64,000 nucleotides of DNA, from the NCBI GenBank assembly GCA_025611195.1, contig GCA_025611195.1_4718.2; one strand, 5' to 3'. Position numbers and translations under genes: made by a program. Position 1 is the stretch's first letter. The number at the start of each line of letters is the position of its first letter. Under the pieces are notes generated by a model. That model did no database searches and had not been told where the DNA came from. It saw only the letters and a list, made by a program, of their open reading frames with translations. This stretch comes from a phage. This document shows positions 3,823 through 51,086 of this stretch, piece after piece.

Positions 3823-4178
3823 TTTAATCCTCTAAGTGTTTCAAGTAGTTCCTGAAATTTGTAACGATATTTAGAATCACTTAACGTGTAACAGCAACCA
3901 CGTAACACGTTATGCGCGTAATCAGCTTGTAAACCACGAACCTTCGGATCCAGTGATAGATTCAATGACGCGTCATCAAAAATCCACGCTTCAATGTTCT
4001 TCTTAGATTCCTTCGTTAACATCGTTTTCACCTCGTAGTAAAAGTAAATAGAGTTTTGTCGAGACGCCCTAATTACATACAACGTAGGTTCTCCTGGCTT
4101 CAGAGAATTCTTAAAATCCGTTAGTTTTGATGGACAGGATAAGACAGCATAAAAGCCTCCCATTACGGGAGGCTTCAT
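3819..4178 (-). CDS. hypothetical protein (119 aa)
   Basis: ORF track; stop overlaps thyA start (ATGA at 3819-3822). Confidence 0.5.
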
Positions 4179-12095: not shown

Positions 12096-12121
12096 AGCAG
12101 GTACCGGTAACGCGGCATAAA

Positions 12122-12149: not shown

Positions 12150-12707
12150 TTACTCCATCCATACTTCTTCGTCGTAATGATTTTCTATCGCATTACGCCA
12201 AAAACGTACGGTGTCCAAACTAATCGGTGCGTAAAAATGTTGGTCAACGCCTACATTAAGTCCGTTGGCCTTCGCTAACATACAGCGATGAATATGCCCG
12301 AATAGATTGAAGTAGCCCGGGTTTCTTTCGCTGGGTTTATGGCATAGCCAGTAGGATTCGTCATTGCTAATCGGCAATACCAACGGATGTTCATAAACAG
12401 CAGCAAACCCCATACCGAGCAGTTTATCACGCCACGCGTCGAAGCTTAATCCTGTCGCTTTGTATGCGTCTTCGTCCCAATTCCCCATTACCAATTGAAC
12501 CTGGATATCAGAACGAATGGCTTCCACGAACTCGAACTTACCCCAATCACCTAAATGCCACAACACACTGTTCTTTGGAAGATTGTTGATGGCTTTCAGC
12601 ATATGTTGGTTCATATCGGCGACGCTTGCGAACGGACGGCGTGAATACGTCCATGTACGCTCGCTATCGAAATGGGTATCCGATGTAAAGAAGATGGGTG
12701 GGGTCAT
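12150..12707 (-). CDS. calcineurin-like metallophosphoesterase
   Basis: SDTHF, GDWG, GNWD and GHIH motifs in order. Confidence 0.65.
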   Translation of the reverse strand: MTPPIFFTSDTHFDSERTWTYSRRPFASVADMNQHMLKAINNLPKNSVLWHLGDWGKFEFVEAIRSDIQVQLVMGNWDEDAYKATGLSFDAWRDKLLGMGFAAVYEHPLVLPISNDESYWLCHKPSERNPGYFNLFGHIHRCMLAKANGLNVGVDQHFYAPISLDTVRFWRNAIENHYDEEVWME

Positions 12708-13186
12708 TGATCTAATTGCTCCAGAAATGCGCGACCCGATTTACTTGCTTTTAAATGCTGTTCTGCGGAAGTAAGCAGAAGATCGGTTGGTGTGAATGCA
12801 GCGCTACCTTTCCACGCCGTTTTCAGTTTACCCTTTTCGATACTGAACTGAATCAGTTGTTGGGTACCGAAGTTAAGCGTGTTCGTCGCGGCGCTAAATA
12901 CACCACCCATCATGCTGTAACCAAAGACTTTCACATTTTCCGTGTAGAAGTCATTGTCGATCAATTTGTTCTGGAGCTCGAGTTGATCGGACGGCAGCAA
13001 TCCCCCATCAAAGACACTTAAAATACCAGCCAGGCGATACATACTCACCTTCCCTGCAACGCCCACCACGTAATTGCCATACACGGTTTCTTCCAGTTTA
13101 GCAACAACGGTGCGATCGTCGGAGGTTTTCATCGAAACCTCAATACCATCACCAACTTCTGTCAACGTTAAATCAACGATACTCAT
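12704..13186 (-). CDS. hypothetical protein (160 aa)
   Basis: ORF track; ATGA overlap with 12150..12707. Confidence 0.45.
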   Translation of the reverse strand: MSIVDLTLTEVGDGIEVSMKTSDDRTVVAKLEETVYGNYVVGVAGKVSMYRLAGILSVFDGGLLPSDQLELQNKLIDNDFYTENVKVFGYSMMGGVFSAATNTLNFGTQQLIQFSIEKGKLKTAWKGSAAFTPTDLLLTSAEQHLKASKSGRAFLEQLDQ

Positions 13187-13943: not shown

Positions 13944-13968
13944 TCACGTAAGTAATATAGCCGTGAAA
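13944..13968 (-). promoter_or_regulatory. candidate phage early promoter (minus-strand TTTCACGGCTATATTACTTACGTGA)
   Basis: One of four near-identical 25-nt motifs with invariant TATATTAC, 50-70 nt upstream of the minus-strand ATG at 13895. Confidence 0.5.
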
Positions 13969-14048: not shown

Positions 14049-14077
14049 CTCCTCCCCACACCTTTCCTGGGGAGGAG
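14049..14077 (+). terminator. 10-bp hairpin (CTCCTCCCCA / TGGGGAGGAG) followed by TTTTAT, in the 5' leader of the helicase gene
   Basis: Perfect inverted repeat with 9-nt loop then T-run on plus strand; no plus-strand gene upstream. Confidence 0.4.
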
Positions 14078-14111
14078 TTTTATCATACTTTCTATTAATT
14101 CGAGCGCGATT

Positions 14112-16193
14112 ATGTTGGATAGAATCAATCGTTTAATGAACCGAATGACGGTTAAAAATCAGAGTAACAATACCGTGCATATCGGGGGTATCGATGCGTG
14201 GCGTCTTTCAGATGACATTCAGCGTATATGGGGTACCTCCCGATTTATGAAACACATGTTTCGTAATTTCTCTTCTAGTGGACTCAGTCTCCACAACTTT
14301 TACCTTCCCGATTTCGTTTATATTCTCGAAACGATCATCGAAGCAAAGAATACCCGTAGTAACAAACGCATGCTGAAACACCTTATCGAGATACTACTGC
14401 AGGAAACATGGTTGCAAAATACCACCATCGAGCAGCCTGCAATCCTCGATAAAGCACGCATGAACAAAATGCTAACGCTCTCTTTGTTCGATTATCAAGA
14501 TGAGTTCATCGACATCTATAACCGTAATGTACCTAAGTATCGACTGAAAGGATACGTGTGTGCGATGGGTGCTGGTGCTGGTAAAACGATCACAGCATTG
14601 GCATTAAGCGCCGCAATGAACGTCGATGTATTTGTGGTCTGCTGCCCTAAGAACACCATGCGTTCAGCATGGCAATCCGATGTAAACAAAGCCATCGTTG
14701 ATCCTGCAACAGAAACCGCGTTCTGGTCGGATACAATGCCACCATCACAGCTGCAGAAAAGCGATAAATACTATTTTTTACATTACGAATCGATGGGCTT
14801 ATTAAACGATGTGATGATCAAGCATAAACGCACAGCGAAGCGCGTTCTTATTGTTGTTGACGAAAGCCATAACTTCAACGACAAGAACAGCCAACGTTCC
14901 CAGCGACTGGTTGATCTTGTACAGACAATGCGTCAAACCATGAATGCGGATGTGCACGTCTTGTTTATGTCGGGTACGCCTGTTAAACAGATGGGTTCTG
15001 AGATGATCCCATGTTTAGGTTGTATCGATCCGATGTTCCAAGGACAGGTGGTCGATAGCTTCAAAGCAATTTACGGTTTAACCAGCAGCCGTGCTAACGA
15101 TATCCTCAGACATCGTCTTGGGTTCATGATGCATGTCGTACCTAAAGAGGCTTACCGTAAAACCCGTCCGGAAGTTCAGGACGTTTACGTGAAGCTCCCT
15201 AACGGTAGCGATTATACCATCTCGAGCATTCGTGACGACATGGCGATATTTGTACGCGATCGGGCGAAGTATTACAAGGATAACTGGGGACATTACCGAA
15301 AGATTTTTGATGATGCCTTGGACTACTATCGTAAGACTATTCGTACCGACGGAGAACGTAAAGAGCTATCTCGATACGAATCGATTGTTGCGCGTTTCCA
15401 GAAAGGTTACGATCCCGTCAGAGACAAAGAAGATGCGATGTTCTGCAACGCGTTTGAAAAACGTTCCATCATGCCAGTTCTTCCTTCTGATTTAAGGGTT
15501 GCTTTCAAAGACGCCAAGAGCGTCATCAAGTACGTTGGGTTGAAAATTCAGGGTGAAGCGTTGGCGCGTGTTCTGGGCGCAGCGCGCATTCGGTGTCATG
15601 TCGACATGGTGGAATACATCGACTTCGAAGAGTACATCAATAACGCCGAAGCCAAAGTGTTGATCTTCACATCGTACGTTCAGGTGGTTGAACGCGTCGA
15701 TAACATGCTTCGTGATGCGGGCTTCTTACCGGAACCCATTTACGGGAAGACCAACAAAAACATCAACCAAATACTTGCCCGTCTACGCGACGATCCTGAC
15801 AGCGGTCCCGCTATCGCAACATTTGATAGCTTAGCTGAAGGGGTTCCGATGCTGATGTGTAATGTGGGTCTTTTCCTGAACAACCCGTGGCGCTCATCCG
15901 ATGAAATCCAAGCCATCAGCCGTCTCGATCGTGTAGGGCAAACGCAACCTGTTCGGATTTATCGTTTCATGTTAGATACAGGAAGCGAAGGTAACGTTTC
16001 TACACGTAGCCACGAAATCATGGAGTTAAGTCGGCAGCTTGTTGAAGAAATCACGGGCGTCAAATACGTGGTGAACAAGCAAGATGATGTTAACTTGCAG
16101 GAAACGTTAGCGATGGAAGGATACGATCAATACGTTACCGTAAACACCTCGGAATACGATATTAAACCACGACCTGCGTTCTTGGAATGGTAA
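14112..16193 (+). CDS. SF2 helicase / SNF2-like ATPase
   Basis: Walker A GAGAGKT, DESH (motif II), SGTP (motif III), C-terminal helicase domain; start set to first ATG after the leader hairpin (ORF track 14007 is probably too long). Confidence 0.65.
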   Translation: MLDRINRLMNRMTVKNQSNNTVHIGGIDAWRLSDDIQRIWGTSRFMKHMFRNFSSSGLSLHNFYLPDFVYILETIIEAKNTRSNKRMLKHLIEILLQETWLQNTTIEQPAILDKARMNKMLTLSLFDYQDEFIDIYNRNVPKYRLKGYVCAMGAGAGKTITALALSAAMNVDVFVVCCPKNTMRSAWQSDVNKAIVDPATETAFWSDTMPPSQLQKSDKYYFLHYESMGLLNDVMIKHKRTAKRVLIVVDESHNFNDKNSQRSQRLVDLVQTMRQTMNADVHVLFMSGTPVKQMGSEMIPCLGCIDPMFQGQVVDSFKAIYGLTSSRANDILRHRLGFMMHVVPKEAYRKTRPEVQDVYVKLPNGSDYTISSIRDDMAIFVRDRAKYYKDNWGHYRKIFDDALDYYRKTIRTDGERKELSRYESIVARFQKGYDPVRDKEDAMFCNAFEKRSIMPVLPSDLRVAFKDAKSVIKYVGLKIQGEALARVLGAARIRCHVDMVEYIDFEEYINNAEAKVLIFTSYVQVVERVDNMLRDAGFLPEPIYGKTNKNINQILARLRDDPDSGPAIATFDSLAEGVPMLMCNVGLFLNNPWRSSDEIQAISRLDRVGQTQPVRIYRFMLDTGSEGNVSTRSHEIMELSRQLVEEITGVKYVVNKQDDVNLQETLAMEGYDQYVTVNTSEYDIKPRPAFLEW

Positions 16194-16198
16194 TTAAG

Positions 16199-16227
16199 AA
16201 GCTCTGCCTGATGTCAGGCAGAGCTTT
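16199..16227 (+). terminator. rho-independent terminator after helicase gene
   Basis: AAGCTCTGCCTGA-TG-TCAGGCAGAGCTTT: about 12-bp stem followed by T-run, 6 nt after the stop. Confidence 0.6.
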
Positions 16228-16292
16228 ATGCTGCGTTCGCTGCAAAATCGTATGACGTATATGCGTTGTACTTATTAAATAGGACTGAATAC

Positions 16293-17744
16293 ATGAAACT
16301 CAAACAAAGCTGGAAAGACGAACTTCTTGCGTTAGTAAATAGCAAAAACAGTTTACAGCTGACATTAGACGACGTAAAATTTGAACTAACTGAACCGGTA
16401 AGCGAAGTGCCCGGAACGGTTACTGTCACGATCAAACCGAACGATGATAGCCGTTACTTTAACGAGCAGTCTCTGACCTACGTTCGTCGAGACATCGCTA
16501 AAAACTTCACCGGGATCCCGTTACGGGTTATCGTTAAAAATGATACCGCCGTAAAGGATATCATCAACACGATCGCTGAACGTTACGGATTGGTATTTGA
16601 CACAACCGTCGACTTCCTCGAATCCGAGCTGAATAAACAAATTACGTTCGCAGACACCGGTATTAAAGACATCACGGTTCCGGTTGCAAACACGTCTTAT
16701 GTTTGGGCTGGTAATCTTCAGTTCAACATTGCTAACGATACGTTAAGCTTGATTACGATCATCAAGAAAACCGATCTTACGAATCTGGTTTATCTGGATG
16801 GTGTTGAAGCTGATACAACGGGATCGTTACTATTAGCAACGACCTCGGTTATCGACGAAAACGGAAATACCGAAACAACTGAAGGTGTCCTTGACGCCGC
16901 GCACTTCCAGAATGTCCTGAACGTCATGGTTCGTTATGGTGATATTACCAACGAACAAATGCAACAAGCAATGCAGACAATTAACCAAAGCGAAGACGTT
17001 CGTAGAGTAGAGGTGAGATCATACGGTGACGCCGAATTACTGGTAACCACCAAGAAAGATTGGGCTATCGGTAGCCTTAAGGGTGCTATGGCTGTTGGAC
17101 GCGCTTCACCTAAACCGATCCAATACGTTCTTAAAACAAAAGGCGGCAGCATTATATTATCATTAAATGGTTGGACAAATGTTTCCATCGATTGGGGTGA
17201 TGGGAATAAGACGACGGAGGACTCAGTCGATAATGAATATCGGCACAATTATACGGACACTACAGAACGTACGATCGTCGCTACGGGTACCCCTACCAAC
17301 GTTGAAGATACAGAGGTACAGCAAAGCTTCACCGGTGGTAACATTACAGAAATCGTTGACTGGAACAACGGATTACCTAAGGCCCCATCATTACTTGCGG
17401 CGAACAGTTTAACTAAGGTTCCTAATTATATCCCGGCATACTGGACATCGTTAGAAGGTATGTTTACGAGATGTAGCGTTATTAACGACGTGAACATCAC
17501 CAAATGGAACACCCGCAACATTACTTCAATGAAGGACCTCTTCTACGGTTGCGCTGCGTTCAACCAACCGATCGGTTCGTGGGATGTTTCGTCTGTTAAG
17601 AATATCGACAATATGTTGTCTGGATGCTTCGCGTTCAATCAGGATCTGAGTGGTTGGACATTCCCGGCAGGCACTTCACACATTAACTACGACGCCATGA
17701 CCGCCGTGTGGAGTACTGAACACAAACCACACTTCACCGAGTAA
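16293..17744 (+). CDS. putative virion/surface protein with C-terminal DUF285 (BspA-like) repeats
   Basis: C-terminal repeats of the form MF..C..FNQ.I..WDVS.V.N...M; ATG at 16293 with AGGA RBS (ORF track start 16266 is a TTG). Confidence 0.55.
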   Translation: MKLKQSWKDELLALVNSKNSLQLTLDDVKFELTEPVSEVPGTVTVTIKPNDDSRYFNEQSLTYVRRDIAKNFTGIPLRVIVKNDTAVKDIINTIAERYGLVFDTTVDFLESELNKQITFADTGIKDITVPVANTSYVWAGNLQFNIANDTLSLITIIKKTDLTNLVYLDGVEADTTGSLLLATTSVIDENGNTETTEGVLDAAHFQNVLNVMVRYGDITNEQMQQAMQTINQSEDVRRVEVRSYGDAELLVTTKKDWAIGSLKGAMAVGRASPKPIQYVLKTKGGSIILSLNGWTNVSIDWGDGNKTTEDSVDNEYRHNYTDTTERTIVATGTPTNVEDTEVQQSFTGGNITEIVDWNNGLPKAPSLLAANSLTKVPNYIPAYWTSLEGMFTRCSVINDVNITKWNTRNITSMKDLFYGCAAFNQPIGSWDVSSVKNIDNMLSGCFAFNQDLSGWTFPAGTSHINYDAMTAVWSTEHKPHFTE

Positions 17745-17812: not shown

Positions 17813-18151
17813 TTAGAACCAGAGTTCTTTCATGAGGTAGGCTTCCATATCGTAGATAAGCCACTCGTCAGGAATTTCTAAAGGATCGTCTTCGGTTAAG
17901 GTCAGCATGTGCAGGGCGAACGCACGCTTAATATCGTTCAGCAGTTTCTCGTCGTCGTAACCTTCAGGTAACTTACGGTCTACCAGTTGGGTTTGTTTAT
18001 AGACAGCACAGAACGCTTCTGGGCTGTGTTTGTCCATCGGAAATTGTTCAGCAGCCTGAACCATCGTCAACGTCCAGCTTACAACATTGTAGCGCTCACC
18101 GTTAATTTCACTGAACTGATCATCGATTAAACAGATTTGTTGTACGTTCAT
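17813..18151 (-). CDS. hypothetical protein (112 aa)
   Basis: ORF track; ATGA overlap with upstream gene. Confidence 0.45.
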   Translation of the reverse strand: MNVQQICLIDDQFSEINGERYNVVSWTLTMVQAAEQFPMDKHSPEAFCAVYKQTQLVDRKLPEGYDDEKLLNDIKRAFALHMLTLTEDDPLEIPDEWLIYDMEAYLMKELWF

Positions 18152-19110: not shown

Positions 19111-20685
19111 TTACAATTCAAAATCTTCATCGATAACGCGCTGGGTAAGCACTTTGTCGCTGAAGAACTCCACCTTGCGCTGATGGTATTTACGATGCGC
19201 TTCGATAGAAGTACATACCAGATACCAGAAGGTTGGCGTCATTCCTTCAAACTTCCCTTTCAGCTGACGCAGTCGCCCCAACACCTGAATGTTACCGGTT
19301 CGTGACCCCATCGCTAACGTCATGAACGCCATCACCAAGTCAGGAAGGTCGATACCCGTACCTGCCGATTTCACCGTCGTAACGCTAATATCGTTATCCA
19401 ACAAGACCATGAAATCTTCTTCAGCCGTATAAGGACCGATCTCTAACTCAGGAATACGTTCACTAAGGTAATGCGACAACGACTTACACATATCGACGGT
19501 TGCACAATACACCAGCATCTTCATACCTTCCTGATACTGGTTCATGAAACCTTTGATGATAACCGTATAGATGAAGTTAAAATACGCGAGTTTGAGTTGC
19601 TTGTTCTTCATGATAGACTGTTCGAATATCGTGTGAGAATAAGAACCCCCAAACCCTTTATATCTGACTTTATCTGTACTGCGTAGTCGATACGTCACGG
19701 CATTTACCGCAATGTATTTCTTGTATTCGCCTTTCGCATAACGGGCTTCTTTCGGATACATCAAATACAACATCCGCTCGATGAACGGATCATCGGACAC
19801 CGCCGTTGCTGACAGATAGATGATTTCCGGAATACTAGCGTAACACTTGACCTTAAACAAGAAATGCAATGCTTCATGGCACTCGTCATGAATCAGAAGG
19901 CCTATGCCGGTCTTTTCCCAAAACTCAGCGGGATGGAAGGCATATGGCGCAACGCAGTTATTCTTCTCGTAGTCCGCAATATAACGTTGGAACATGTTCA
20001 AGGAGAACAATGCGATTTTGAAGTCGAGTTCGCCTTGTTCAACCAAGGTTTGAAACTCCAACATACTGTAACGAGGAATGTCAGGATGCGGTGGATCCTC
20101 CTTAGCGTTCCCGCGTATCTCGATAACATCCCCTGGTTCCATCCCGAAGAAGTTCAGTAGTGAGCTTCGCCAACCTGGCATGTATCTCGGCGACAGAATG
20201 ATACCCGTCCGCACACCGCGTCGGAAGGTAATCTCCTGCGACATGGCCGTTTTTCCCGACCCCGTTTGAGCGGTGTTTAGGCTCATTCTGAAGGGGGTAT
20301 CCTTACCCCCGTCCATGTACTCCAACCATTCTTGCTGATCTTCACGCCATGGGAACTTCCATTTCTTTACGAACTCCACTTCTTTACCTGGTGCCGGATC
20401 GTGGTAAACGATTTCCAACCACTCTTTTCGTATCCCTCGGGAAAAGATAAAATCCAAAAACGATTTCAACTGTTCGCGGAGTAAGTATACCTCACTATAA
20501 TCGCTTCTTGCCGCGGCATACGTGTTTATGGTATCGGTAACCATTCTCCGTGTACGAGGGTCGCGCCGTTTCCTCAGATGCAAACAACGGTCTCGAAGGT
20601 AATGGCCGATAAGATGGGCAAATCGAAGTCCGTATCCGCTCAGCCTCATGCCGTGCGAGAAGACATCGATACGAGCTAACTTCAT
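19111..20685 (-). CDS. DExH-box SF2 helicase
   Basis: Motif I AQTGSGKT, motif II LLIHDECHEA, motif III LSATAV, motif V TVKSAGTGIDLPD, motif VI QVLGRLRQ; start overlaps stop of beta-prime-like gene (ATGA). Confidence 0.7.
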   Translation of the reverse strand: MKLARIDVFSHGMRLSGYGLRFAHLIGHYLRDRCLHLRKRRDPRTRRMVTDTINTYAAARSDYSEVYLLREQLKSFLDFIFSRGIRKEWLEIVYHDPAPGKEVEFVKKWKFPWREDQQEWLEYMDGGKDTPFRMSLNTAQTGSGKTAMSQEITFRRGVRTGIILSPRYMPGWRSSLLNFFGMEPGDVIEIRGNAKEDPPHPDIPRYSMLEFQTLVEQGELDFKIALFSLNMFQRYIADYEKNNCVAPYAFHPAEFWEKTGIGLLIHDECHEALHFLFKVKCYASIPEIIYLSATAVSDDPFIERMLYLMYPKEARYAKGEYKKYIAVNAVTYRLRSTDKVRYKGFGGSYSHTIFEQSIMKNKQLKLAYFNFIYTVIIKGFMNQYQEGMKMLVYCATVDMCKSLSHYLSERIPELEIGPYTAEEDFMVLLDNDISVTTVKSAGTGIDLPDLVMAFMTLAMGSRTGNIQVLGRLRQLKGKFEGMTPTFWYLVCTSIEAHRKYHQRKVEFFSDKVLTQRVIDEDFEL

Positions 20686-22688
20686 AACGTGAATACATCC
20701 TCCGGTTTAGGTTCTTTGCGCGGTAAAAGCATGTAGTCGATCGGATGATCCGGCTTCATGGTTGGGATATAACTGTTCGGGTTTTGGAACGCATCCAGTT
20801 GCTCTTGGTGAGCGAACTTCATACTCAAGGAGCGCATGTTCATGTTCTTCTTGAAGGTGCTGAAGTATCGTGTTGTTCCCTGTTTCGGCATGCGATAATC
20901 TTTCGTGTGTGGCGAACGAATCATGCTGGCGTAGAGAATAACATCGAGATGCGAAAGGTTCATTCGCAGACGCTGTGCGCACAAGCGATGCCAATAGTAC
21001 AGCACGTTTGCAACTTCTTCCGGTGTTGCTTCGTCTTCCGAGAGGAACCCGGCACTGAAAGAACCTTTCCCGAATTTGAACTCACGTTCGATTTCTTTTG
21101 CGTATTCCATCATGTTTTTGTGGATTAACGGCATCTGGAATAACGTACGTGAATTGTCCCAATGTTTCAAGTCGAAAATCACAATCCCGTCAGACGTCAC
21201 TTCCCAGCTATGGCGTTTAAGATAACGGATAAACGCTTTACTCGGTACAACAGGACGTCCGCAGAAATCGAAATTGACTTTGAGCTTACGATAGCTTTCA
21301 TCTTTCCTGTCGTAAATCTCCATATCGCAAAGCGTCATGTTAAACAGACGCTGTGGTATCAGCGAACTGATTTCTTCCGCTTCGGCTACATCGTACAACA
21401 TGTTCGCAAGACCTAACTTCATCTTAATCAGCACGTGTTTACCTTTCAGCTCACGTGCGAGTTTGATGTCGTTCATGTTCTGGCTGTAACGAAGGATATG
21501 TTGATATTCCGGTGGGATTGGTGCTGTAGAGACCGTTGACGAACCGTCGTGGTGTTTGGTAGAAAGAATGTTCTGCGTTACCTGTTGCGAGCAGGTACGC
21601 GCTGCGCCATCGCCGACATTATCGGTTAATGCGAAGTTATGACTTAATTCACCATAACACGTTGTGCATACCCCAGCAGGATCGGGATGATGACAATAGT
21701 TAACGGAGCGCATACGCACTGTGGTGCCGATCAATTCTTTCATATGTGGTTGTATCGCTACCAACGAACCGTCATCACGAATAATGAATCGGCCGTGGAA
21801 GCCACGCAGGTCGGTCTCATCACGGATTGGCATCGGGATGGTCTCTCTACTACCACAATCACCAGGATGTAGTCGTTGCACAACCGCTGTCGCTATCTGA
21901 AGTTCACGACCGAAATATTCAGACTTTTTAATCTGCTCTTTGTTGAACAGCAACGATTTCGCCGCAGAACGACTTTCTTTCAAGCTGTCGGGAAGAGAGA
22001 TCAAACCTGACGCGTACGACCGCATTACTGGATCACGGAATATCTCGGAGTTAATATCGGTCAAGAATCCACGCATCCCAATACACTGCAGCACCTGCCC
22101 AATCGAAACGTGTTCGGTTCTTACCGCACGTGCAATAGGGTTTGCATGTAATGTTTTATCGGTGCTCAGTACCTTTGTCAGTTTCTTGTATGCGCTTTCG
22201 ATACCTTCGCGGGTGGGTTCCGCTTCAGCGATGATTTTCTTAACTTCGGGGTGTACGGTAATCTGATAAAAATCATCCGCACAAATAGTTGTTACGTATT
22301 CCTCCAACGCATACGTAAAGAAGTTATACACGTTGTTAAACATATCGAACAGTGCTTTCCAGAGAACCTCACGATTCTCTTGTGGGTAAGCATACATGCA
22401 TTGACGATACGCTGCGCTTTGCAACGCTACCGATGAACCCGCTGTAAACTTACGTTTATCAACCAGGTTCTCTTTTGTCAATGGTGTCTCAGGATACATG
22501 CGATGTACAGACCAGTGCATGTAACTAAAGAAAATGCGTCGCGCACGTAATTCATGAACGCCATCGTCCATCTCGATATATACACGGTCATTAGGCTGTG
22601 CCCACTCGAATACCTCATCAACCGGCCAGTGCATAAGCTCGCGTGCCCTCACACGACGTTTCGTGGTGGTCGTCTGTGTTGTAGTCAT
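20682..22688 (-). CDS. RNA polymerase beta-prime subunit, C-terminal portion (split multisubunit RNAP)
   Basis: QVLQCIGMRGF aligns with beta-prime AGMRGLMA region; VRMRSVNYCHHPDPAGVCTTCYG...TQNILSTKHHDG aligns with E. coli [21 protein letters not shown]...TQLTMRTFHIGG. Confidence 0.65.
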   Translation of the reverse strand: MTTTQTTTTKRRVRARELMHWPVDEVFEWAQPNDRVYIEMDDGVHELRARRIFFSYMHWSVHRMYPETPLTKENLVDKRKFTAGSSVALQSAAYRQCMYAYPQENREVLWKALFDMFNNVYNFFTYALEEYVTTICADDFYQITVHPEVKKIIAEAEPTREGIESAYKKLTKVLSTDKTLHANPIARAVRTEHVSIGQVLQCIGMRGFLTDINSEIFRDPVMRSYASGLISLPDSLKESRSAAKSLLFNKEQIKKSEYFGRELQIATAVVQRLHPGDCGSRETIPMPIRDETDLRGFHGRFIIRDDGSLVAIQPHMKELIGTTVRMRSVNYCHHPDPAGVCTTCYGELSHNFALTDNVGDGAARTCSQQVTQNILSTKHHDGSSTVSTAPIPPEYQHILRYSQNMNDIKLARELKGKHVLIKMKLGLANMLYDVAEAEEISSLIPQRLFNMTLCDMEIYDRKDESYRKLKVNFDFCGRPVVPSKAFIRYLKRHSWEVTSDGIVIFDLKHWDNSRTLFQMPLIHKNMMEYAKEIEREFKFGKGSFSAGFLSEDEATPEEVANVLYYWHRLCAQRLRMNLSHLDVILYASMIRSPHTKDYRMPKQGTTRYFSTFKKNMNMRSLSMKFAHQEQLDAFQNPNSYIPTMKPDHPIDYMLLPRKEPKPEDVFTL

Positions 22689-22833
22689 TATTGCTTTCCG
22701 ATTTAAATGGTTTTATCATACGGTTTACCAAATCCGTTGGACTTTACTATCGTTGTGATAGCATCGGGAATCCCTTCCCTTAGGTTATGTAGGTGTTAAT
22801 ATATCTCCACTGCTGTCGTAAAGGTCAGCAGCA

Positions 22834-23319
22834 TTATCCAGCTTCCTGTTGTATAGCGTATGGATCCATAGCGTCTGACATATTCGCAAAAACGGTGAGA
22901 ATAAACCCCTTTATCTGTCTCACCTCGGTTACACGAAGCCCTTTATCATTACGGTATACGTTTTCTTCACCAACCAACTTCGGCCTGATAGCATAAACCC
23001 CATCAACAAACGGGAATGTCGGATACGGATAAATACCGATACGAATGATGTTTGGATGATCGCCTAGAAGGTCACGCCCAAATGTATCTACTCTACCGTA
23101 AACCGTTCCATCCACACCCTCCACTTCAATGAGATCATTTCGAATATCCTGAAATAGCTGCTCTAATGTGTCGGCGGGGTACGTATATGCGACACCTAAC
23201 GCTGGGTCCTCAATGGTTTTGACACTGAATCCGTTAAGCCAAACAATCTGTTCATCCGCCCATGTTTCTTCATATACCGTTAATCCATCGCCGTATATGT
23301 TGGCGCGTGCTATCTCCAT
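22834..23319 (-). CDS. hypothetical protein (161 aa)
   Basis: ORF track; ATG at 23319 with AAGAGGAAA RBS. Confidence 0.5.
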   Translation of the reverse strand: MEIARANIYGDGLTVYEETWADEQIVWLNGFSVKTIEDPALGVAYTYPADTLEQLFQDIRNDLIEVEGVDGTVYGRVDTFGRDLLGDHPNIIRIGIYPYPTFPFVDGVYAIRPKLVGEENVYRNDKGLRVTEVRQIKGFILTVFANMSDAMDPYAIQQEAG

Positions 23320-23433
23320 AATCTCATTTCCTCTTATACGTTCGGATAGATGACATGTTGGATATACGTTGCCTTTGCATATATTGCTTTATTTCCGTCA
23401 GAAATAACGGAAAATAAAAACAACGACATAGTT

Positions 23434-23463
23434 CCCTCCCACCTCCACATGGGAGAGGGAGGG
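23434..23463 (-). terminator. CCCTCCC / GGGAGGG hairpin
   Basis: 7-bp stem (extendable with mismatches), downstream of the stop at 23477. Confidence 0.5.
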
Positions 23464-23476
23464 CTATTCGTGTTTA

Positions 23477-23842
23477 TTACTCTATGCTGTCTTCTTCAAC
23501 ACAATCCTCTTCGGAACCGTCGAACGTTTTCTGCACCGCAGTGGTATCCCAGTTGGCAGCGTAATCAGCCATCGCTTCGCGCAACGCTTCTTCACCAGCA
23601 TCGCCAGCCAGATCAAGCACAACCAAACCTTGCGCGACGTTTTGAGCGACAGTATCAATAACGGTTGCATCTTCTTCAAAACTACGTACCGGTTCAATGG
23701 TGCCTACATCAACAGCATAGTTCGTGGTCGCTGTAAGCACGGCGACTTGTAGTGCATCGCTATTATCATCATCATGCAGTGCTGCTTCAATACCGATTGG
23801 ACGGGCCAGTTCTTGCAGTGTTAATTTGCGAATTAAGTTCAT
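23477..23842 (-). CDS. small acidic protein (121 aa), member of a local 3-gene family
   Basis: Shares LTLQELAR and VLDL.G..G segments with 23866..24216 and 24335..24748. Confidence 0.45.
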   Translation of the reverse strand: MNLIRKLTLQELARPIGIEAALHDDDNSDALQVAVLTATTNYAVDVGTIEPVRSFEEDATVIDTVAQNVAQGLVVLDLAGDAGEEALREAMADYAANWDTTAVQKTFDGSEEDCVEEDSIE

Positions 23843-23865
23843 TATGTTTTTTCCTCAGGTGAATG

Positions 23866-24216
23866 TTAGCAATCGTTTAAAACTTTTTCGATACGATGGT
23901 TGACGAGTTCATTGAACGACTCTTCAACTTGTTCGATAATTTCATCAACGTCGATATCTAATTGTTGGGGTTGGATAACATGCTCTTTCATGGTTTCTAA
24001 CCAGTATTCGGCTTTAACCATAACGTTAGCTACTTGTTCGACCTGGCTGCGTATGTCGACGATCTGGCAGTCAGGATTTTTAATATCGATGATGTGTCCG
24101 TGCTGATTGATAAAGCCTAGTTTATTCGACGCCTTTACCGCATCGCGGGCAAGTTCTTGCAAGATTAAATTATTTACGTAGTTCACTGCTACGGAACGAT
24201 TTTCTTTATCACTCAT
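23866..24216 (-). CDS. small acidic protein (117 aa), member of a local 3-gene family
   Basis: Start moved from 24381 to ATG at 24216 (MSDKENR) with AAGAGGA RBS; the longer ORF would read through the hairpin at 24295-24323. Confidence 0.45.
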   Translation of the reverse strand: MSDKENRSVAVNYVNNLILQELARDAVKASNKLGFINQHGHIIDIKNPDCQIVDIRSQVEQVANVMVKAEYWLETMKEHVIQPQQLDIDVDEIIEQVEESFNELVNHRIEKVLNDC

Positions 24217-24294
24217 ACCAGGGATCCTCTTTAAGTCTTCACATTCTAGTGTTAAGCAGTTAAAATAAACCGTCCCTTTAATCAGCATAAACAT

Positions 24295-24323
24295 CCTCCT
24301 CCTACCATGCGGGCAGGAGGAGG
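24295..24323 (-). terminator. CCTCCTCC / GGAGGAGG hairpin
   Basis: 8-bp inverted repeat between stop of 24335..24748 and start of 23866..24216. Confidence 0.5.
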
Positions 24324-24334
24324 CGTAATATGCA

Positions 24335-24748
24335 TCAGAAAGGTGTGCGATTCTTATATTCGAATAATGTCTGAAGGACACATCGTGTTAACGAGTTTTG
24401 TAATTCGATACGTCCTTGTTCTCCGAACAGATCCAACACCATCATCCCTTTTGCTGTTTTCTCTGCCACTTCTTCACAAATCTGTAAATTGTACATGTCG
24501 TCATTGCCGAGTTCCTTTCGACCGATCGAACTGACACGCATCAACTCACCTTTACTATCGCGAACATCGGAGAATGCATCATAGACCGCATCGATGTTCG
24601 CAGAACGCGTCAAACCCTCCGCTTCGCGCCACTCTCGATATGTACCATCAAGCGTTTGTTCCTCGCCCGAGGTTGTTGATTCGCTGTTGGTGGTTGGGCG
24701 AATTAAATGGGGTGTTATCATCGCGATCACGCTGTCGTAATGGTCCAT
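24335..24748 (-). CDS. small acidic protein (137 aa), member of a local 3-gene family
   Basis: MMVLDLFGEQGRIEL resembles GLVVLDLAGDAGEEAL of 23477..23842. Confidence 0.45.
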   Translation of the reverse strand: MDHYDSVIAMITPHLIRPTTNSESTTSGEEQTLDGTYREWREAEGLTRSANIDAVYDAFSDVRDSKGELMRVSSIGRKELGNDDMYNLQICEEVAEKTAKGMMVLDLFGEQGRIELQNSLTRCVLQTLFEYKNRTPF

Positions 24749-24759
24749 CGTTTACCTCG

Positions 24760-26928
24760 TTAGCTTTCGCAGTCATCTGCGTCGATGATTTGTCCGCCAG
24801 CAACGTTCAGTTGATGATACAGAATCCTCAACGCACGGTTGCCACCAATGGGATACTTCTCGAAGTTGGTCGCAATAGGAATCGCTGACGGCTTATCGGT
24901 CGCATAGATGCTTTCAGTGATGCTATCCACCTGTTTTGGATTGTTCGCATAGTCCATAAAGACGCTCGCAAACCATCCGCCAGCGAAGGCGGTAACTTCG
25001 CGATGTTCAGATTCGCCACAGTAACGAGTCGGTTGCTCTTTACCGGGAGAACTGTATTTATCGCTATTACTGAGTTTCGACGGTAATCCATGCGCTTGCA
25101 ATTTAGGGATACCCACAGCCGACCAATCGTTCGCCGTCTTCTCCAACATCATGATGTACGTGTCACCGATCGCAATATCGTTCTTGGTTGTCCGCCACTG
25201 TCCAGAACGCCCGCGGTACCGTACAGGACCTTTCTTCAACGGGAACTCACGAATCAGATTCTCCATACGTTCTGAACCTGCTGCGATACTGTCCGTCGGG
25301 ATATAAACTTCCGTACCGTGGCGCTGTACGTACCGTAAATGATCCCATTTATCCTCATTCGTGATACAGTATTTTTCAACAACCTGTTCCACGAACTCAG
25401 GACTGACGATATAGTAATAGCGCATCAGTGTGTTCCAGGCGGTCTCCAGATCGCCTGCATCCATCACTGGTTTCAGTTCACGCATGATCTGATCACCAAC
25501 GCCGTTGATGTATGGCGCATTAACACGACTTAAACTCATCCTTTTAATTACCGTGCTATCGTCAAACATAAAGTCCGCAACGTTACCCCATTGGTCAACC
25601 GGCATTTCATCGTCTTCCATGATGTCGGTTACGACGAATTTATCGCCTGCCATACCGGTGAATTTAAACCCGATGCCTGGAACAACGTCATACGTGTATG
25701 TGATGGTCACACGCCAATCATCAAGATTCTCTTTACGGTAATCGCGGGTCGGTAACACATGGCGTAGCTGTCCGTTAGGATTGCGGATATCAATACCGTG
25801 TTCAGCGTCAGCCAGGTTCAACCACCACATCACCGTTTGATGATGACGTATCGGCGTACCAACGCGTTCACGTTCGTACTTACGAACAGCATCCTGAATT
25901 CGGGTGTAAAGCAAACCGATTGCGTTCTCGTATTTCAGGAATTGACGATACGGAGGACGCATCTTCTCTTCCATCATAATCGCGCGCTCGCGGGCTTGAC
26001 GTCCAGAACGACGATGTCGATCGCTGACAACATCGATATCCGTTACACGCGCATTCGGTTCAGCGTAAGTGAGATCATCGTAAACATAATCCACACGCTG
26101 AAGATTACACGTCATCATGTCAACAACGCTGAGGATAGGATCTATTTCGCGTGTTGCTGCAAGTAACCCATCCTTACGAATACGCTCACCGTTCTCGGGT
26201 ATCGCTTGATATACCTCATCATCGCCGTAGAGATTAATTGGATATCGTGATTTACCTGATGTGATCGTTCGCTTCTCAATGCCGGTACTGGTGAAATGCT
26301 TCAATACACCACGACGGGCAACGCCACCATCTTCAATACACTGGTAGAAGCTACCGAAACACACCTTGCAATCGCGACCGTAACCCCACTCACGTGTTTC
26401 TTGATTGATCGCTGGGCTTTCCATCAAACGAGAATATCGCGGTACGATCTGGCCTCGACGAAGGGAATGGAACAAGTTGGTTGGTCGAAAACGGAAACCG
26501 TACTGCTGATGCATGATGTGATGCTCAGGCACTTCAAGCAAGCGTAGCTCGTGACGGTTACCATCCTCTTGGTTTTCGTACAGCACGTAATGCATCGTGT
26601 TTGTTTTGATGCTGTTTGCTGTATGTCCTGGTTGAAACCGTGGAATGATATCTATGATGCGAGATTCAACTGGAAACTCTACTGACCAAGTGTTCTGTCC
26701 GTACTGGTATTCAATCCCCGTCGTTAGTCGGGACGGCTTCGCATCTTTGATAACCAACGCTTGGCTAAGATGTCCACCAAACATCGCAGCGCGCTGTGCT
26801 GAGTTATAATGCAATAGCCCGTTAAGTCCAGTCCCTACGCCAGTATACTCCTGTTTAATGGGAATGATTTTACCTTCAGCGATTGCCTGCTTCACAGATT
26901 CATAAAGAGGTTTTTCTTTATAATGCAT
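24760..26928 (-). CDS. RNA polymerase beta-subunit-like protein (C-terminal catalytic region)
   Basis: GDKFVVTDIMEDDEMPVDQWGNVADFMFDDSTVIKRMSL resembles the beta GDK..RHGNKGV..EDMP..DG.P.D..NP..VPSRM region; start moved to ATG at 26928 (MHYKEKP), since the track ORF overlaps the divergent plus gene. Confidence 0.5.
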   Translation of the reverse strand: MHYKEKPLYESVKQAIAEGKIIPIKQEYTGVGTGLNGLLHYNSAQRAAMFGGHLSQALVIKDAKPSRLTTGIEYQYGQNTWSVEFPVESRIIDIIPRFQPGHTANSIKTNTMHYVLYENQEDGNRHELRLLEVPEHHIMHQQYGFRFRPTNLFHSLRRGQIVPRYSRLMESPAINQETREWGYGRDCKVCFGSFYQCIEDGGVARRGVLKHFTSTGIEKRTITSGKSRYPINLYGDDEVYQAIPENGERIRKDGLLAATREIDPILSVVDMMTCNLQRVDYVYDDLTYAEPNARVTDIDVVSDRHRRSGRQARERAIMMEEKMRPPYRQFLKYENAIGLLYTRIQDAVRKYERERVGTPIRHHQTVMWWLNLADAEHGIDIRNPNGQLRHVLPTRDYRKENLDDWRVTITYTYDVVPGIGFKFTGMAGDKFVVTDIMEDDEMPVDQWGNVADFMFDDSTVIKRMSLSRVNAPYINGVGDQIMRELKPVMDAGDLETAWNTLMRYYYIVSPEFVEQVVEKYCITNEDKWDHLRYVQRHGTEVYIPTDSIAAGSERMENLIREFPLKKGPVRYRGRSGQWRTTKNDIAIGDTYIMMLEKTANDWSAVGIPKLQAHGLPSKLSNSDKYSSPGKEQPTRYCGESEHREVTAFAGGWFASVFMDYANNPKQVDSITESIYATDKPSAIPIATNFEKYPIGGNRALRILYHQLNVAGGQIIDADDCES

Positions 26929-27347: not shown

Positions 27348-27378
27348 CATTTATGCCGTCGTTCGTTGGCTTAGCACA

Positions 27379-30302: not shown

Positions 30303-31889
30303 TTATTTTTTTCCTCTTAAATTTACTACATGTTCATTTAATCGAACAACTAATTGCACAAGCTGCTGACGGATATCTGCTGGACAAAGCATCAATCCTT
30401 TACGATCAGCTGGGACTTTCTCAAGGATTTCCGGACCTGCTGCGGAAACATCCCAATCCCATTCACAAAACGCATCAGCCACCATGTTAATACCGACAAC
30501 CGGTAAAGTTGTACGTTCATCTTCATACATGGCATGCGGATACAATTTATTGACGGTAATGACCTCCTGTGGTTTTAACTGATGGATAATCTGGTAAACG
30601 TCGTCGCGTTTAACCTGGATACCTACGGTCAGCGCAGCCAGTTGAGGAAAACCCCAATGGTCTAATAAACACGCTGCGATCGCTAACGCTTTTGCCTGAT
30701 GTACGGCTTCAATCGGTGATAGACTTCTCGCTGGAAGATGGCTATCAAGCAACCATTGTGCCAATGCTCGGCATCCACGGTTGATTGGTTTTAACTCAAC
30801 GCTGTCATCATGTTTAGCGTAGGTGTATCCGTCGTAACGTTTTGCGATACGCGCATACATGTCTTCAACTTTACCGTAAGGTGCCGTTTCATCGATGTCG
30901 TGCAGCACCCGTTCCATCTGGGTAAGATACGCGATGTCGAGAATGAGTACGCGCGGTGAACGTTTATCTTTCACCATCAACGCATCGATCACGCCTTGGC
31001 TATCTTCGTCTTGCGCGTTCCCTCGCGGGGTTTTCTCGCGAATCGGTCCGCTGAAACGTCGTTCCGTACAAAGGTTATTCACATAGCTAAAGATCAACGT
31101 TACCAGGTGCGTACAACTTACCAACACCCCATCTTTAACGACAGGCTGTACGGCTTGGTCCAAATCGCGTACTGCGAGACGGCGAACGATGGCTTGTGAA
31201 CGCAACCAACCGGGTACTTTCTCCGTCGACATGTAATCCACTGTCATCGACAGCGTGATCTTTTTATCACCTGTCTGCGCACGGATATAATCTTCCAGTC
31301 GGTCGTAAGCAGCGATATCATGAATGCGTGTTTTATACATTAACGACATAGCTACTTCTTCTTTACGTACCGTCCCGTACGTTTTCCCTGCGTCAATCAG
31401 AAACTCCGCCCAAATCGGCACCATCAGACGGACGTAGATCGCTAACGCCGTTAACTCAACGTAATCATTTCGTAAATAGGTTTTCTCGGGTATATCATCC
31501 TCACCTAATGTTGTTTTCATGTCCGGCGGTAATTTTACCCAACCTGGGGTATTACACAACGCCAGAATCTCTTCATACACAACCGGTTTGTAAATTTCAC
31601 CAACAGCGCGGCTCAACTCCTCCATTTGTTGTTGTGGAGCAATGTAGTTATCCATCGCTTCACGTGCTTTAACGAACCCTTCGAAGATGTCGTCGATTCG
31701 ACGTGGGTTCTTTTGTTCTATCCAGGCGAGATACTTGTTAATCTCCCGCATCTGATTGCTAGCCATATCCCCATCAATCTTGATGTAACCCTGGCCTGAA
31801 AATTCCACGGTACGTCCGTCACGATGTTTGATGAGATAGTGATCCAGCTTTTCTTTGCCTTGCGTCGTAATGACGGGCACTATGTGCAT
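30303..31889 (-). CDS. hypothetical protein (528 aa)
   Basis: ATG at 31889 with AAGAGGTTG RBS; TATATTAC promoter motif about 90 nt upstream. Confidence 0.55.
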   Translation of the reverse strand: MHIVPVITTQGKEKLDHYLIKHRDGRTVEFSGQGYIKIDGDMASNQMREINKYLAWIEQKNPRRIDDIFEGFVKAREAMDNYIAPQQQMEELSRAVGEIYKPVVYEEILALCNTPGWVKLPPDMKTTLGEDDIPEKTYLRNDYVELTALAIYVRLMVPIWAEFLIDAGKTYGTVRKEEVAMSLMYKTRIHDIAAYDRLEDYIRAQTGDKKITLSMTVDYMSTEKVPGWLRSQAIVRRLAVRDLDQAVQPVVKDGVLVSCTHLVTLIFSYVNNLCTERRFSGPIREKTPRGNAQDEDSQGVIDALMVKDKRSPRVLILDIAYLTQMERVLHDIDETAPYGKVEDMYARIAKRYDGYTYAKHDDSVELKPINRGCRALAQWLLDSHLPARSLSPIEAVHQAKALAIAACLLDHWGFPQLAALTVGIQVKRDDVYQIIHQLKPQEVITVNKLYPHAMYEDERTTLPVVGINMVADAFCEWDWDVSAAGPEILEKVPADRKGLMLCPADIRQQLVQLVVRLNEHVVNLRGKK

Positions 31890-31976: not shown

Positions 31977-32001
31977 TCATAGAGGTAATATAAGCGTGAA
32001 T
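31977..32001 (-). promoter_or_regulatory. candidate phage early promoter (minus-strand ATTCACGCTTATATTACCTCTATGA)
   Basis: Fourth instance of the TATATTAC-core motif, upstream of the minus gene starting at 31889. Confidence 0.45.
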
Positions 32002-37254: not shown

Positions 37255-37279
37255 TCACTTAAGTAATATAGCCGTGAAA
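37255..37279 (-). promoter_or_regulatory. candidate phage early promoter (minus-strand TTTCACGGCTATATTACTTAAGTGA)
   Basis: Near-identical to the motif at 13944..13968; 90-110 nt upstream of the minus ATG at 37168. Confidence 0.5.
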
Positions 37280-39064: not shown

Positions 39065-39740
39065 TCGCTACCTCATACCCGCAGCTTTACCTGCAGCTTC
39101 CGGTGTTACCGGAATGTCCAGAATACATCTTATCCATATTCCAAATGGAACGTAGGACTTCCGCGCTGGATCTCGCTTGAGACCACGTATTCGTTGAACG
39201 TTCTCCTGAACGGAGCTTCGCTGCTGATCGAACATTGTCGTGTACGGTAGGCATCCCCGAAGGGATTGTCATTGAAGCCGCGTACATCCGCTACCTTGTT
39301 TCTACCTTATCGGTTCCTCTTACGAGGCGTAGCGGCCTTAGCCCTTCCCAGCAATTCACGGAATCCAAGCTCTTCCTTTCGGAAGGCAGGGCCTATGATT
39401 AAGCATCCCCGTCGCTGTTATCGACTATATCTTCATCCTCGTTGCGAGGAGTCTCCCGTTTGGGTCTGTGTTTAACAGAGCCTACTCTACTCAACATCGC
39501 GTCTTTCGATAGTCTGTGAGCACACATCTTAACGAACATTCGTGGATTCCTAAACAGGTGAACGTTCTTGTTGAGATGCTTCGCTGCGGATTATTCCCGT
39601 CCTACCTCTTTTACCGTACCCAGTTCATTACGCTGGCCCTCATCTATGTCACCATGATGAGTTGGTGTGTAGTCCGATTACAGAAACTTCCCGTCAATTA
39701 GAGAGTTTTAACTACGTTCCTGTTACCAGAAACCAGATCC
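39065..39740 (-). ncRNA. group I intron-like element B (approximate boundaries)
   Basis: Minus strand carries Q-like AATCCGCAGCGAAG (39592-39579), R-like GCTCACAGACTATCG (39521-39507) and S-like GAAGATATAGTCG (39433-39423); no long ORF. Confidence 0.5.
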
Positions 39741-39814
39741 CGACGGTATCAATAAATCAACGTAAGTTATTGATTTAATTGAAAAACTGAAATCTGCATT
39801 ATCTAAATCTTCAG

Positions 39815-40185
39815 TATGGTTCGCTACTCCATACCCGTACCTCATGTACTGCTTACGTCTTTCACGTAAGGATAGACTATATCTTTCACCCTCAGCATTA
39901 TCTGGTCGGGGCTCCCATTTCGGCGGTCAGATGACCGGTGGTTTCCCACGCCGCTTGGCCCTAACGCCCGTAAGCGATAGTCGTTGAGCACATCTCCGTT
40001 CTGGAGACTTCGCTGCGGATTCCCCAATCCTTGCCGCTTTTACCGTACCTGAATGATTAGTTCAGCCCCACGCTCTGTTCCCAGGCATGGTTGGTGGACG
40101 AGGCTCTAAGTAGGTTCCCGCATTAGAGAGTTCCTCGTAACAACATTTCTGCGTTACTGGGCCTAACGACCCTTTCAAGATCATC
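39815..40185 (-). ncRNA. group I intron-like element A (approximate boundaries)
   Basis: Minus strand carries P/Q-like GGTAAAAGCGGCAAGG...AATCCGCAGCGAAG (40044-40008), R-like GCTCAACGACTATCG (39987-39975), S-like AAAGATATAGTC (39885-39875) and a P9-like hairpin CTTACG-TGAAAGA-CGTAAG. Confidence 0.55.
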
Positions 40186-43463: not shown

Positions 43464-43488
43464 TCACCTAGGTAATATAACCCTGAAA
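43464..43488 (-). promoter_or_regulatory. candidate phage early promoter (minus-strand TTTCAGGGTTATATTACCTAGGTGA)
   Basis: TATATTAC-core motif 65-90 nt upstream of the minus ATG at 43399. Confidence 0.5.
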
Positions 43489-46968: not shown

Positions 46969-47042
46969 AAATCCTCCAAAAGTTATTTAGTCTGTCTACA
47001 TCATCTCGTATATCTGTTAAAAAAGAAGGACGGCATAAAAAG

Positions 47043-47689: not shown

Positions 47690-48211
47690 TTATTTAAAAA
47701 TGTATTCATACCCGAAAGTCGTCGCCGACCAGACCCGGATAGATGATAGTGTTCCACCACGATAAAACGTTTTTGTGAACTCCATATCCTGGACAACACG
47801 ATAATAAACACGTCCGATAATACGCACGATAAGATATCGTGATAACGATCTCTCCTCGCAGTACTCATCGATAAAGTCATCGTCGATATCTGATAAGACA
47901 ACGTCTGCGATTTCTTGCAGTAGATTCCTCATCAGCATCTGCCTTCCTTCGGTACCCCACCCAGACAAACAGTAGTCGTCTTCTGCTTGACTATAGATGT
48001 CGTTAACCGCCTGTTCGAGCAGTTGCTCAAGATAGTAGTCATCGCGCTTTATAACGTGGCGACGGCGCTCAGAGGCGTATTTTTCCATCCTGTGTTTCTC
48101 TTGTTCGGCGTATGTATTAACGACGCCACAGTCTTTTCTGGATCGTCCCACAATGCGCGACGAAAACTGGATACTACCATAACGGTAGGATAGATTTGTA
48201 CGACCTCCCAC
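47690..48211 (-). CDS. hypothetical protein (start uncertain)
   Basis: ORF track; N-terminal 40 aa overlap the upstream ORF in another frame, so the real start is probably internal. Confidence 0.4.
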   Translation of the reverse strand: MGGRTNLSYRYGSIQFSSRIVGRSRKDCGVVNTYAEQEKHRMEKYASERRRHVIKRDDYYLEQLLEQAVNDIYSQAEDDYCLSGWGTEGRQMLMRNLLQEIADVVLSDIDDDFIDEYCEERSLSRYLIVRIIGRVYYRVVQDMEFTKTFYRGGTLSSIRVWSATTFGYEYIFK

Positions 48212-51063: not shown

Positions 51064-51086
51064 GCTTTCTCCTACGCGGCATAAAA

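Follow-up and report, generated by a model that had tools for sequence, protein, structure and literature searches.

Which proteins are encoded by the small genes that lie between two RNA polymerase subunit genes of a phage, and are these proteins related to each other? The question is raised by a locus of the 64,000-nt contig GCA_025611195.1_4718.2 (assembly GCA_025611195.1), the whole of which is referred to as the window. Three open reading frames (ORFs), here termed A (24335..24748), B (23866..24216), and C (23477..23842), are located on the minus strand between the genes of a β-like and a β′-like subunit. The sequence-only reading of this stretch had described them as three tandem, strongly acidic paralogues. 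All three ORFs were recovered at these positions, except that B encodes 116 instead of 117 amino acids (aa), and a fourth small acidic ORF of the same block, D (22834..23319, minus strand), had been overlooked. Taken as a whole, the locus is best explained, with a probability of about 45%, as a lineage-specific early accessory insertion that comprises a pair of distant paralogues, A and C, and whose products would function by binding. The genes are already known as annotated hypothetical proteins of a known phage; new are the relationship between A and C, the recognition of the insertion and of two alleles of A, and the cross-reading of published data sets.

Relationships and properties of the four small genes

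Sequence comparison identifies A and C as distant paralogues, connected by one segment of approximately 35 residues near the C-terminus. The relationship is real at the family level, but weak and short, and it depends on the alleles compared. The segment comprises residues 85-123 of A (24380..24496, minus strand; pattern ...VAxKTAxGxxVLDLFGEQGRIELQ...) and residues 56-94 of C (23561..23677, minus strand; pattern ...VAQNVAQGLVVLDLAGDAGEEALR...), and was recovered by BLASTP, by hhalign, by reciprocal searches with hidden Markov models (HMMs), and by comparison to shuffled sequences. In BLASTP, A and C align over 31 residues with 27.7 bits and an E-value of 2e-5, and the alignments of both families match in hhalign over 39 columns (E 1.2e-4, probability 55%). 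Among the 492 six-frame ORFs of the window with at least 50 aa, C is the best non-self match of the A-family HMM (18.7 bits, E 3.5e-5) and A is the best non-self match of the C-family HMM (11.6 bits, E 0.006). None of 5000 composition-matched shuffles reached the A-C HMM score in either direction, and none of 3000 reached the Smith-Waterman score. In the diverged relative L003, the corresponding proteins A′ and C′ are 32% and 50% identical to A and C of the window, respectively, and the shared segment is kept (E 0.006 for the pair).

Both motifs quoted in the sequence-only reading are present, VLDL.G..G in A (VLDLFGEQG) and C (VLDLAGDAG), and LQELAR in B (LILQELAR) and C (LTLQELAR). The latter is absent from the diverged C orthologue of L003. 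The similarity of B to C is confined to 8/14 residues (E 0.004), with an hhalign probability of 9% and a score that is reached by 125 of 3000 shuffles. No relation was observed between A and B (E 5.8, hhalign probability 0.2%), and no sequence relationship of B to either of the other two could be detected. Likewise, D shares no significant sequence similarity with the other three. The three tandem paralogues are thereby reduced to the pair A and C, and it is mainly this correction, together with the placement of the genes in an expression and evolutionary context, that results from the analysis. A single motif repeated in A, B, and C, with an extra copy at the N-termini of B and C, was considered and rejected, since an HMM of the 31-residue motif matches only A and C among the ORFs of the window. 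A further paralogue at 47690-48226 was discarded as well, the HMM match being weak and the hhalign probability 0.6%.

As to acidity, the earlier description is adequate for C, whereas it overstates A and B. C (121 aa) has an isoelectric point (pI) of 4.05, a net charge of -21, and an acidic C-terminal tail, and is the most acidic protein of the window. A (137 aa, net charge -9) and B (116 aa, net charge -10), both with a pI of 4.68, are moderately acidic, compared to a median pI of 6.2 in the window. D, situated between C and the β′ gene, encodes 161 aa with a pI of 4.31. Ranked by negative charge density among the 71 predicted proteins of the window, C, D, B, and A occupy the first, third, fifth, and sixth position, respectively.

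A Shine-Dalgarno-like sequence precedes each of A, B, and C, and the start of A follows the stop codon of the β gene by 11 nt. B stands out by a GC content of 0.40 versus 0.47-0.48 in its neighbours. For B, a longer version of 140-142 aa starting at upstream in-frame ATGs occurs in some metagenome gene calls. Due to a 1-nt indel these ATGs are out of frame in Goslar, the closest described phage (see below), and the ATG lies within a generic terminator module; the start of B is therefore placed at 24216. A, B, C, and D are genuine protein-coding genes, as is evident from detected peptides and from purifying selection on B, C, and D, whose ratios of nonsynonymous to synonymous substitution rates (dN/dS) are 0.06-0.14, 0.03-0.08, and 0.09-0.14, respectively.

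Three features do not vary within the A family, namely the N-terminus, the segment in common with C, and the Pro-Phe at the end. The Pro-Phe-COOH end (TPF, PPF, or LPF; codons 24338-24343 of the window) was found in all family members, down to 32% identity. It loosely recalls the ...DIPF tip of bacterial single-stranded DNA-binding protein (SSB), which docks partner proteins. In most alleles the residues preceding the Pro-Phe end are not acidic.

An accessory insertion in a conserved polymerase gene block

The 8 kb around the locus are 93.9% identical in DNA sequence to Escherichia phage vB_EcoM_Goslar (Goslar), and the window derives from a nucleus-forming, Goslar-like jumbo phage (Chimalliviridae). 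A, B, and C are the orthologues of Goslar gp170 (YP_009820855.1), gp169 (YP_009820854.1), and gp168 (YP_009820853.1), which are annotated in RefSeq as hypothetical proteins on the minus strand, and D is the orthologue of gp166. Over the full length, C, B, and A are 97.5%, 93%, and 54% identical to their Goslar orthologues, respectively. The gene order between gp171 (β) and gp165 (β′) is the same as in Goslar and identical in nine related genomes. Due to this orthology, Goslar data on early transcription, peptides, and abundance in virion preparations transfer directly to A, B, and C. The window carries the other, non-Goslar allele of A. Neither the A-C relationship nor the insertion nature of the locus is mentioned in the Goslar record or in the Goslar literature covered here.

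The placement of the locus between β-like and β′-like genes, as stated in the sequence-only reading, holds. On one side, the Goslar gp171 equivalent (24760..26928, minus strand; phrog_3295) encodes the C-terminal half of β of the non-virion RNA polymerase (nvRNAP). It is homologous to phiKZ gp71-73 (PDB 7OGP_C, E 4.3e-86), the C-terminal half of the β-like nvRNAP subunit (PMC4666361). On the other side, the gp165 equivalent (20682..22688, minus strand; phrog_3015) encodes a part of β′ and is homologous to phiKZ gp74 (PDB 7OGP_D, E 6.5e-87). Further upstream, a gp68-like gene (30303-31889, minus strand) corresponds to phiKZ gp68, which is the fifth subunit of the nvRNAP.

A, B, C, and D form a block of approximately 2.1 kb at the junction of the β C-terminal-half and β′ genes. 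In six other genera, represented by Ea35-70, Eowyn, KTN4 (a phiKZ strain), RSF1, EL, and Vibrio phage 2 TSL-2019, the β gene directly adjoins or overlaps the β′ gene, and the helicase gene comes next. Since both genes abut in these genera, the block is a lineage-specific accessory insertion in a conserved core block, and the locus neatly illustrates how a cassette of accessory genes can be wedged into a core operon that is invariant in other respects.

In agreement with this, homologues were found solely in Goslar-like phages by protein, profile, tblastn, and contig searches. When the C family was searched exhaustively as a profile in 1.84 billion representatives, only two clusters were obtained, and tblastn against 50,697 phage records returned Goslar as the sole match for A, B, C, and D. 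Word-indexed protein searches revealed close relatives only, apart from a single C of 50% identity and a pair of A clusters with 55% identity, and scans of viral and metagenome contigs added close relatives only. The next nearest β genes share at most 33.5% protein identity.

In L003, β is followed by a 62-aa ORF and then by A′ and C′, i.e., B is missing and A′ and C′ are directly adjacent. Considering this absence together with the lower GC content of B, an old duplication that gave rise to A and C was probably followed by a later arrival of B.

A differs from its neighbours in its degree of divergence. The nucleotide identity to Goslar drops to 53-69% across exactly the A ORF, with flanks of at least 90%. 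dN of A is 0.40 and dS is saturated, compared to a dS of about 0.17-0.29 in the flanking genes. Among the nine related genomes, A occurs in two allele classes with approximately 55% protein identity, whereas the β proteins are 99.3-100% identical; the genes flanking A are 92-100% identical and saturation of dS is restricted to A. This pattern suggests either that alleles were replaced by recombination or that balancing or diversifying selection acted over a long time. The occurrence of two alleles is typical of genes at the interface with the host.

Similar to the genes of the phiKZ-type nvRNAP (gp55, gp68, gp71-73, gp74, gp123), A, B, and C lie within the same operon and are expressed with the same early timing. 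Different from these, they are not homologous to any subunit and are absent from all other chimalliviruses sampled. Profiles of A, B, and C searched against PDB sequences (7OGP chains included), Pfam, and PHROGs revealed no homology to β, β′, or phiKZ gp68, and nothing in the purified phiKZ enzyme, which consists of five large polypeptides and no small subunits (PMC4666361), is a counterpart to them. Confined to Goslar-like phages, A, B, and C do not follow the conservation of the core block and are most likely not core polymerase subunits.

Early transcription and its signals

Published Goslar RNA sequencing (RNA-seq) compared a ChmA knockdown, in which infection is arrested at the early vesicle stage, to a control at 30 min after infection. 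In the knockdown, gp168, gp169, and gp170 display log2 fold changes of +0.6 to +1.1, matching gp171-175 and chimallin, compared to -3 to -7 for late structural genes. gp168-170 thus belong to the early, nucleus-independent transcription class. From gp175 to gp168, read density is flat at approximately 1.4-1.75 reads/nt (gp168 approximately 1.6), as is the fold change. It falls to approximately 0.5 over gp167, just past the hairpin downstream of C, and returns to approximately 1.1 over gp166. We infer one early operon that comprises the gp68-like, gp69-like, and gp70-like genes, β, A, B, and C, with transcription continuing past the hairpin behind A and stopping behind C.

The hairpin after C (23434..23463, minus strand; -28.5 kcal/mol, z -4.6) is GC-rich and followed by a T-rich tract, and is the likely end of the transcription unit. 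In case of the gp167 equivalent (23348-23450, minus strand), the annotated 31-aa ORF starts inside this hairpin. Due to a read density of about a third of that of its neighbours, gp167 is probably not a gene.

A second GC-rich hairpin was found by the terminator scan after A (24295..24323, minus strand; -31.3 kcal/mol, z -6.0). It is followed by TTTATGCTG (24283-24291), and a hairpin is also situated after A′ in L003. The 9-mer TTTATGCYG occurs 8 times in the window versus 1.1 expected, and seven of the eight copies directly follow hairpins, often of the form CCCTCCC...GGGAGGG. These modules are located at 4145-4153, 12113-12121, 24283-24291, 47031-47039, and 51077-51085 on the minus strand and at 16225-16233 and 27350-27358 on the plus strand. 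Considering the position after hairpins and a copy at a convergent junction, the combination of GC-rich hairpin and TTTATGCYG looks like a phage-specific terminator-like module. On the same grounds this reading is preferred over TTTATGCYG as a phiKZ-like "TATG" late promoter for B and C, since the copy at the convergent junction lacks a downstream gene. The embedded TATG might additionally act as a late promoter.

An early-promoter-like motif, TTCACGCTTATATTAC, lies upstream of the gp68-like gene (31985..32000, minus strand) and represents the putative promoter of the operon through β, A, B, and C. The general form, TTCACGGnTATATTAC, has 7 matches in the window versus 2.2 expected. Four of them, which carry no more than one mismatch, are intergenic, lie on the coding strand, and are usually followed by ...TGA (13952-13967, 31985-32000, 37263-37278, and 43472-43487, minus strand). 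One copy starts 88 nt upstream of the chimallin start codon, and the published transcription-start sequence of Goslar chmA is drawn from position -91. Since it resembles the phiKZ early-promoter core TATATTAC, TTCACGGnTATATTAC is probably a Goslar-type early promoter of the virion polymerase. A promoter of this virion-polymerase type probably drives the operon, whose inferred end is the hairpin downstream of C.

Between the hairpin after A and the start of B, neither an early-type motif within 3 mismatches nor an enriched 9-mer was observed. A match to TATATTAAC upstream of β′ (22795-22803) was rejected as a promoter, as the upstream TTCACGG element is missing.

Possible roles of the encoded proteins

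For Goslar, copies per virion were estimated by label-free mass spectrometry of purified virions. gp168 (C) is present with approximately 219 copies (range 146-344; 8 peptides, 50% coverage), gp169 (B) with approximately 92 copies (3 peptides), and gp170 (A) with approximately 2.8 copies (1 peptide, DVNDDEVHDLR). The gp168 peptide ADYAANWDTTAVQK seen by mass spectrometry is also encoded by C of the window. gp166 (D), gp174, and the nvRNAP subunits were estimated at approximately 1, approximately 1.6, and 0-0.6 copies, respectively, so that gp168 and gp169 exceed the co-transcribed polymerase subunits more than 100-fold. The same preparation contained the non-virion proteins chimallin (approximately 126 copies) and PhuZ (approximately 171 copies).

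A, B, and C probably act by stoichiometric binding instead of catalysis, as they are small, acidic, and largely helical proteins devoid of a catalytic motif. Searches of Pfam, PHROGs, NCBIfam, PADLOC, and PDB sequences returned nothing but sub-threshold noise for them, and AlphaFold2 predicted mostly helices at low confidence, with a predicted local distance difference test (pLDDT) value of 42.9 for C and 50.3 for B. In the low-confidence model of C, the helices H59-78 and H80-98 fall into the segment shared with A. The resemblance of VLDLxGxxG to motif I of SAM-dependent methyltransferases was considered and dismissed as superficial: no Pfam or NCBIfam match was found, and with only 25-45 residues between the motif and the C-terminus, proteins of 121-137 aa offer too little room for a Rossmann fold.

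Small acidic proteins that act as DNA mimics or decoys are well known from phages, e.g., T7 Ocr, ArdA, and T4 Arn. Like these, A, B, and C are small, early, of low pI (4.05 and a charge of -21 in 121 aa for C), free of catalytic motifs, and lineage-restricted. Unlike these, they have no sequence similarity to a known DNA-mimic family (Ocr, ArdA, and similar) in Pfam, PHROGs, NCBIfam, or PDB sequences, and the charge geometry of C is obscured by the low-confidence model. A DNA-mimic or decoy role, which the sequence-only reading had raised next to that of transcription factors, would fit the charge of C. C, together with B, reaches a level similar to that of chimallin, and in such a scheme would be a polyanion, abundant early in infection, that serves as a decoy or shield by binding basic proteins with affinity to nucleic acids. 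This is our best guess, although we hold it at somewhat short of even odds. The targets might be host nucleoid or defence factors, or DNA-binding proteins of the phage, at the stage of the vesicle or early nucleus. A specificity factor that faces the polymerase or the host would more likely be represented by A, considering its putative translational coupling to β, its low abundance, and its two alleles.

Several observations weigh against an early accessory insertion with paralogous A and C and a binding role. The Goslar-type allele pair of A and C gives no BLASTP alignment at all, and the hhalign probability of 55% is borderline at the profile level. The hairpin after A could mean that B and C are transcribed from a promoter of their own, though none was found, and the RNA-seq data are limited to 30 min with a library that is possibly unstranded, so that the operon structure is deduced and not mapped. 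The decoy idea is built on charge, abundance, and timing only, and models with pLDDT values of 43 (C) and 50 (B) leave a DNA-like charge geometry unread. Finally, the occurrence of gp168 and gp169 in virion preparations could reflect true packaging and hence a different role.

Packaging is the alternative that survives best, although we consider it unlikely. C and B would then be internal virion proteins, possibly injected with the DNA, that act in the capsid or early vesicle, e.g., as injected anti-defence factors, or by providing acidic counter-ions or chaperones to basic proteins of the virion interior. Besides the copy numbers and the peptide coverage of gp168, it is favoured by the fact that the co-transcribed gp170, gp171, gp174, and gp175 are present at no more than 3 copies, so that the enrichment is not due to the mRNA level. 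Furthermore, gp168 is listed by the authors among the abundant (>200 copies) virion-associated proteins without assigned function, next to gp7, gp22, gp23, gp61, gp88, gp158, gp208, gp209, and gp214. Most members of this list are late-transcribed, whereas gp168, gp158, and gp214 are early, as is gp169. Cross-reading of the RNA-seq and proteomic data revealed late transcription for every protein with demonstrated packaging, for the remaining packaging candidates, and for the capsid protein (-3 to -7 for gp41, gp53, gp58, gp60, gp61, gp208, and gp209). These include the validated packaged proteins gp60, gp61, gp208, and gp209, the reportedly injected gp58, and the capsid protein gp41, all of which depend on the nucleus. 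In contrast, gp168, gp169, gp158, gp162, and gp214 are early, like chimallin and PhuZ, with +0.6 to +1.1 for gp168 and gp169. Since chimallin and PhuZ, at similar levels, demonstrate that abundant early proteins co-purify with virions, the presence of gp168 and gp169 in the preparation is no proof of packaging. Published packaging and injection tests with green fluorescent protein (GFP) fusions do not include gp168 or gp169.

gp158, gp162, gp168, and gp169 have a small size and an acidic pI (4.05-4.8) in common, and constitute a group of early proteins that co-purify with virions. The gp162 equivalent of the window (17813-18151, minus strand; 112 aa, pI 4.3) belongs to the early class and is estimated at approximately 127 copies in the Goslar preparation. 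The gp158 equivalent (about 12707-13186, minus strand; 160 aa, pI 4.5) is early as well and appears on the list of proteins with more than 200 copies.

If the proteins of the locus are decoys or packaged effectors, they would represent a lineage-specific layer in the survival of nucleus-forming phages before the nucleus exists, and would explain part of the unassigned protein mass in Goslar virion preparations.

Doubtful, and less probable than packaging, is a function as lineage-specific accessory factors of the nvRNAP, i.e., as helpers of its assembly or nuclear import or as regulators of promoter choice, with A as the primary candidate. The location of the genes inside the polymerase operon between two subunit genes would suit such a function, as would the distance of 11 nt between the β stop and the start of A, suggestive of translational coupling, and the early timing common to the polymerase subunits and the gp69-like gene. 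gp170 is also found at trace level in the virion preparation, like the polymerase subunits, and small helpers are plausible in that import of the phiKZ nvRNAP is reported to need the dedicated extra factors Imp7 and Imp1. These points are countered by the absence of homologues from every other chimallivirus sampled, by the adjacency of β and β′ in the six other genera, and by the purification of the phiKZ enzyme as five large polypeptides (PMC4666361). Moreover, A differs by approximately 45% between phages with 99-100% identical β, which is unusual for a tight structural partner, and in the single proteomic data set gp168 and gp169 are far from stoichiometric with the polymerase subunits. In Pfam, PHROGs, and PDB sequences, no resemblance to sigma or anti-sigma factors, or to phage proteins known to bind polymerase, emerged.

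It is tempting to speculate, albeit with little probability, that C and B represent a new class of very abundant early polyanionic proteins in physical association with a large phage assembly, i.e., with the capsid interior or with the chimallin shell and early vesicle. There they might shield or decoy by nucleic acid mimicry while the genome lacks a mature nucleus, and A, the two-allele paralogue tied to the polymerase operon, might set host- or strain-specific targeting.

The least probable explanation is that the relatedness is fortuitous and that four unrelated orphan genes were gathered at a permissive intergenic site and share no function: the unrelated B and D, the deviating GC content of B, its absence from L003, and the borderline or missing alignments of A and C would agree with it, but an A-C similarity that exceeds all shuffles, is reciprocally best among the ORFs of the window, lies at the same relative position near both C-termini, and is kept in L003, where A′ and C′ directly adjoin, does not. 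We retain the early accessory insertion with paralogous A and C and a binding role as the preferred reading.

Outside the insertion, two group-I-intron-like elements are arranged in tandem at 39415-39781 and 39853-40189 (minus strand; 46.9 and 29.6 bits, respectively, compared to an Rfam gathering threshold of 50), and a possible third, weaker one is located at 39159-39363 (minus strand). They are situated at the 3′ end of the gene for the N-terminal part of nvRNAP β′ (40062-41411). At this site Goslar has the HNH endonuclease gene gp186, which is missing in the window, where approximately 370 nt of different sequence occur instead. Past the β′ gene, the helicase gene of L002, a relative from ERR5961608, encodes 876 aa (14057-16687) with a faint LAGLIDADG match, compared to 524 aa in the window (19111-20685), which is probably explained by an intein or homing-endonuclease insertion in some relatives only.

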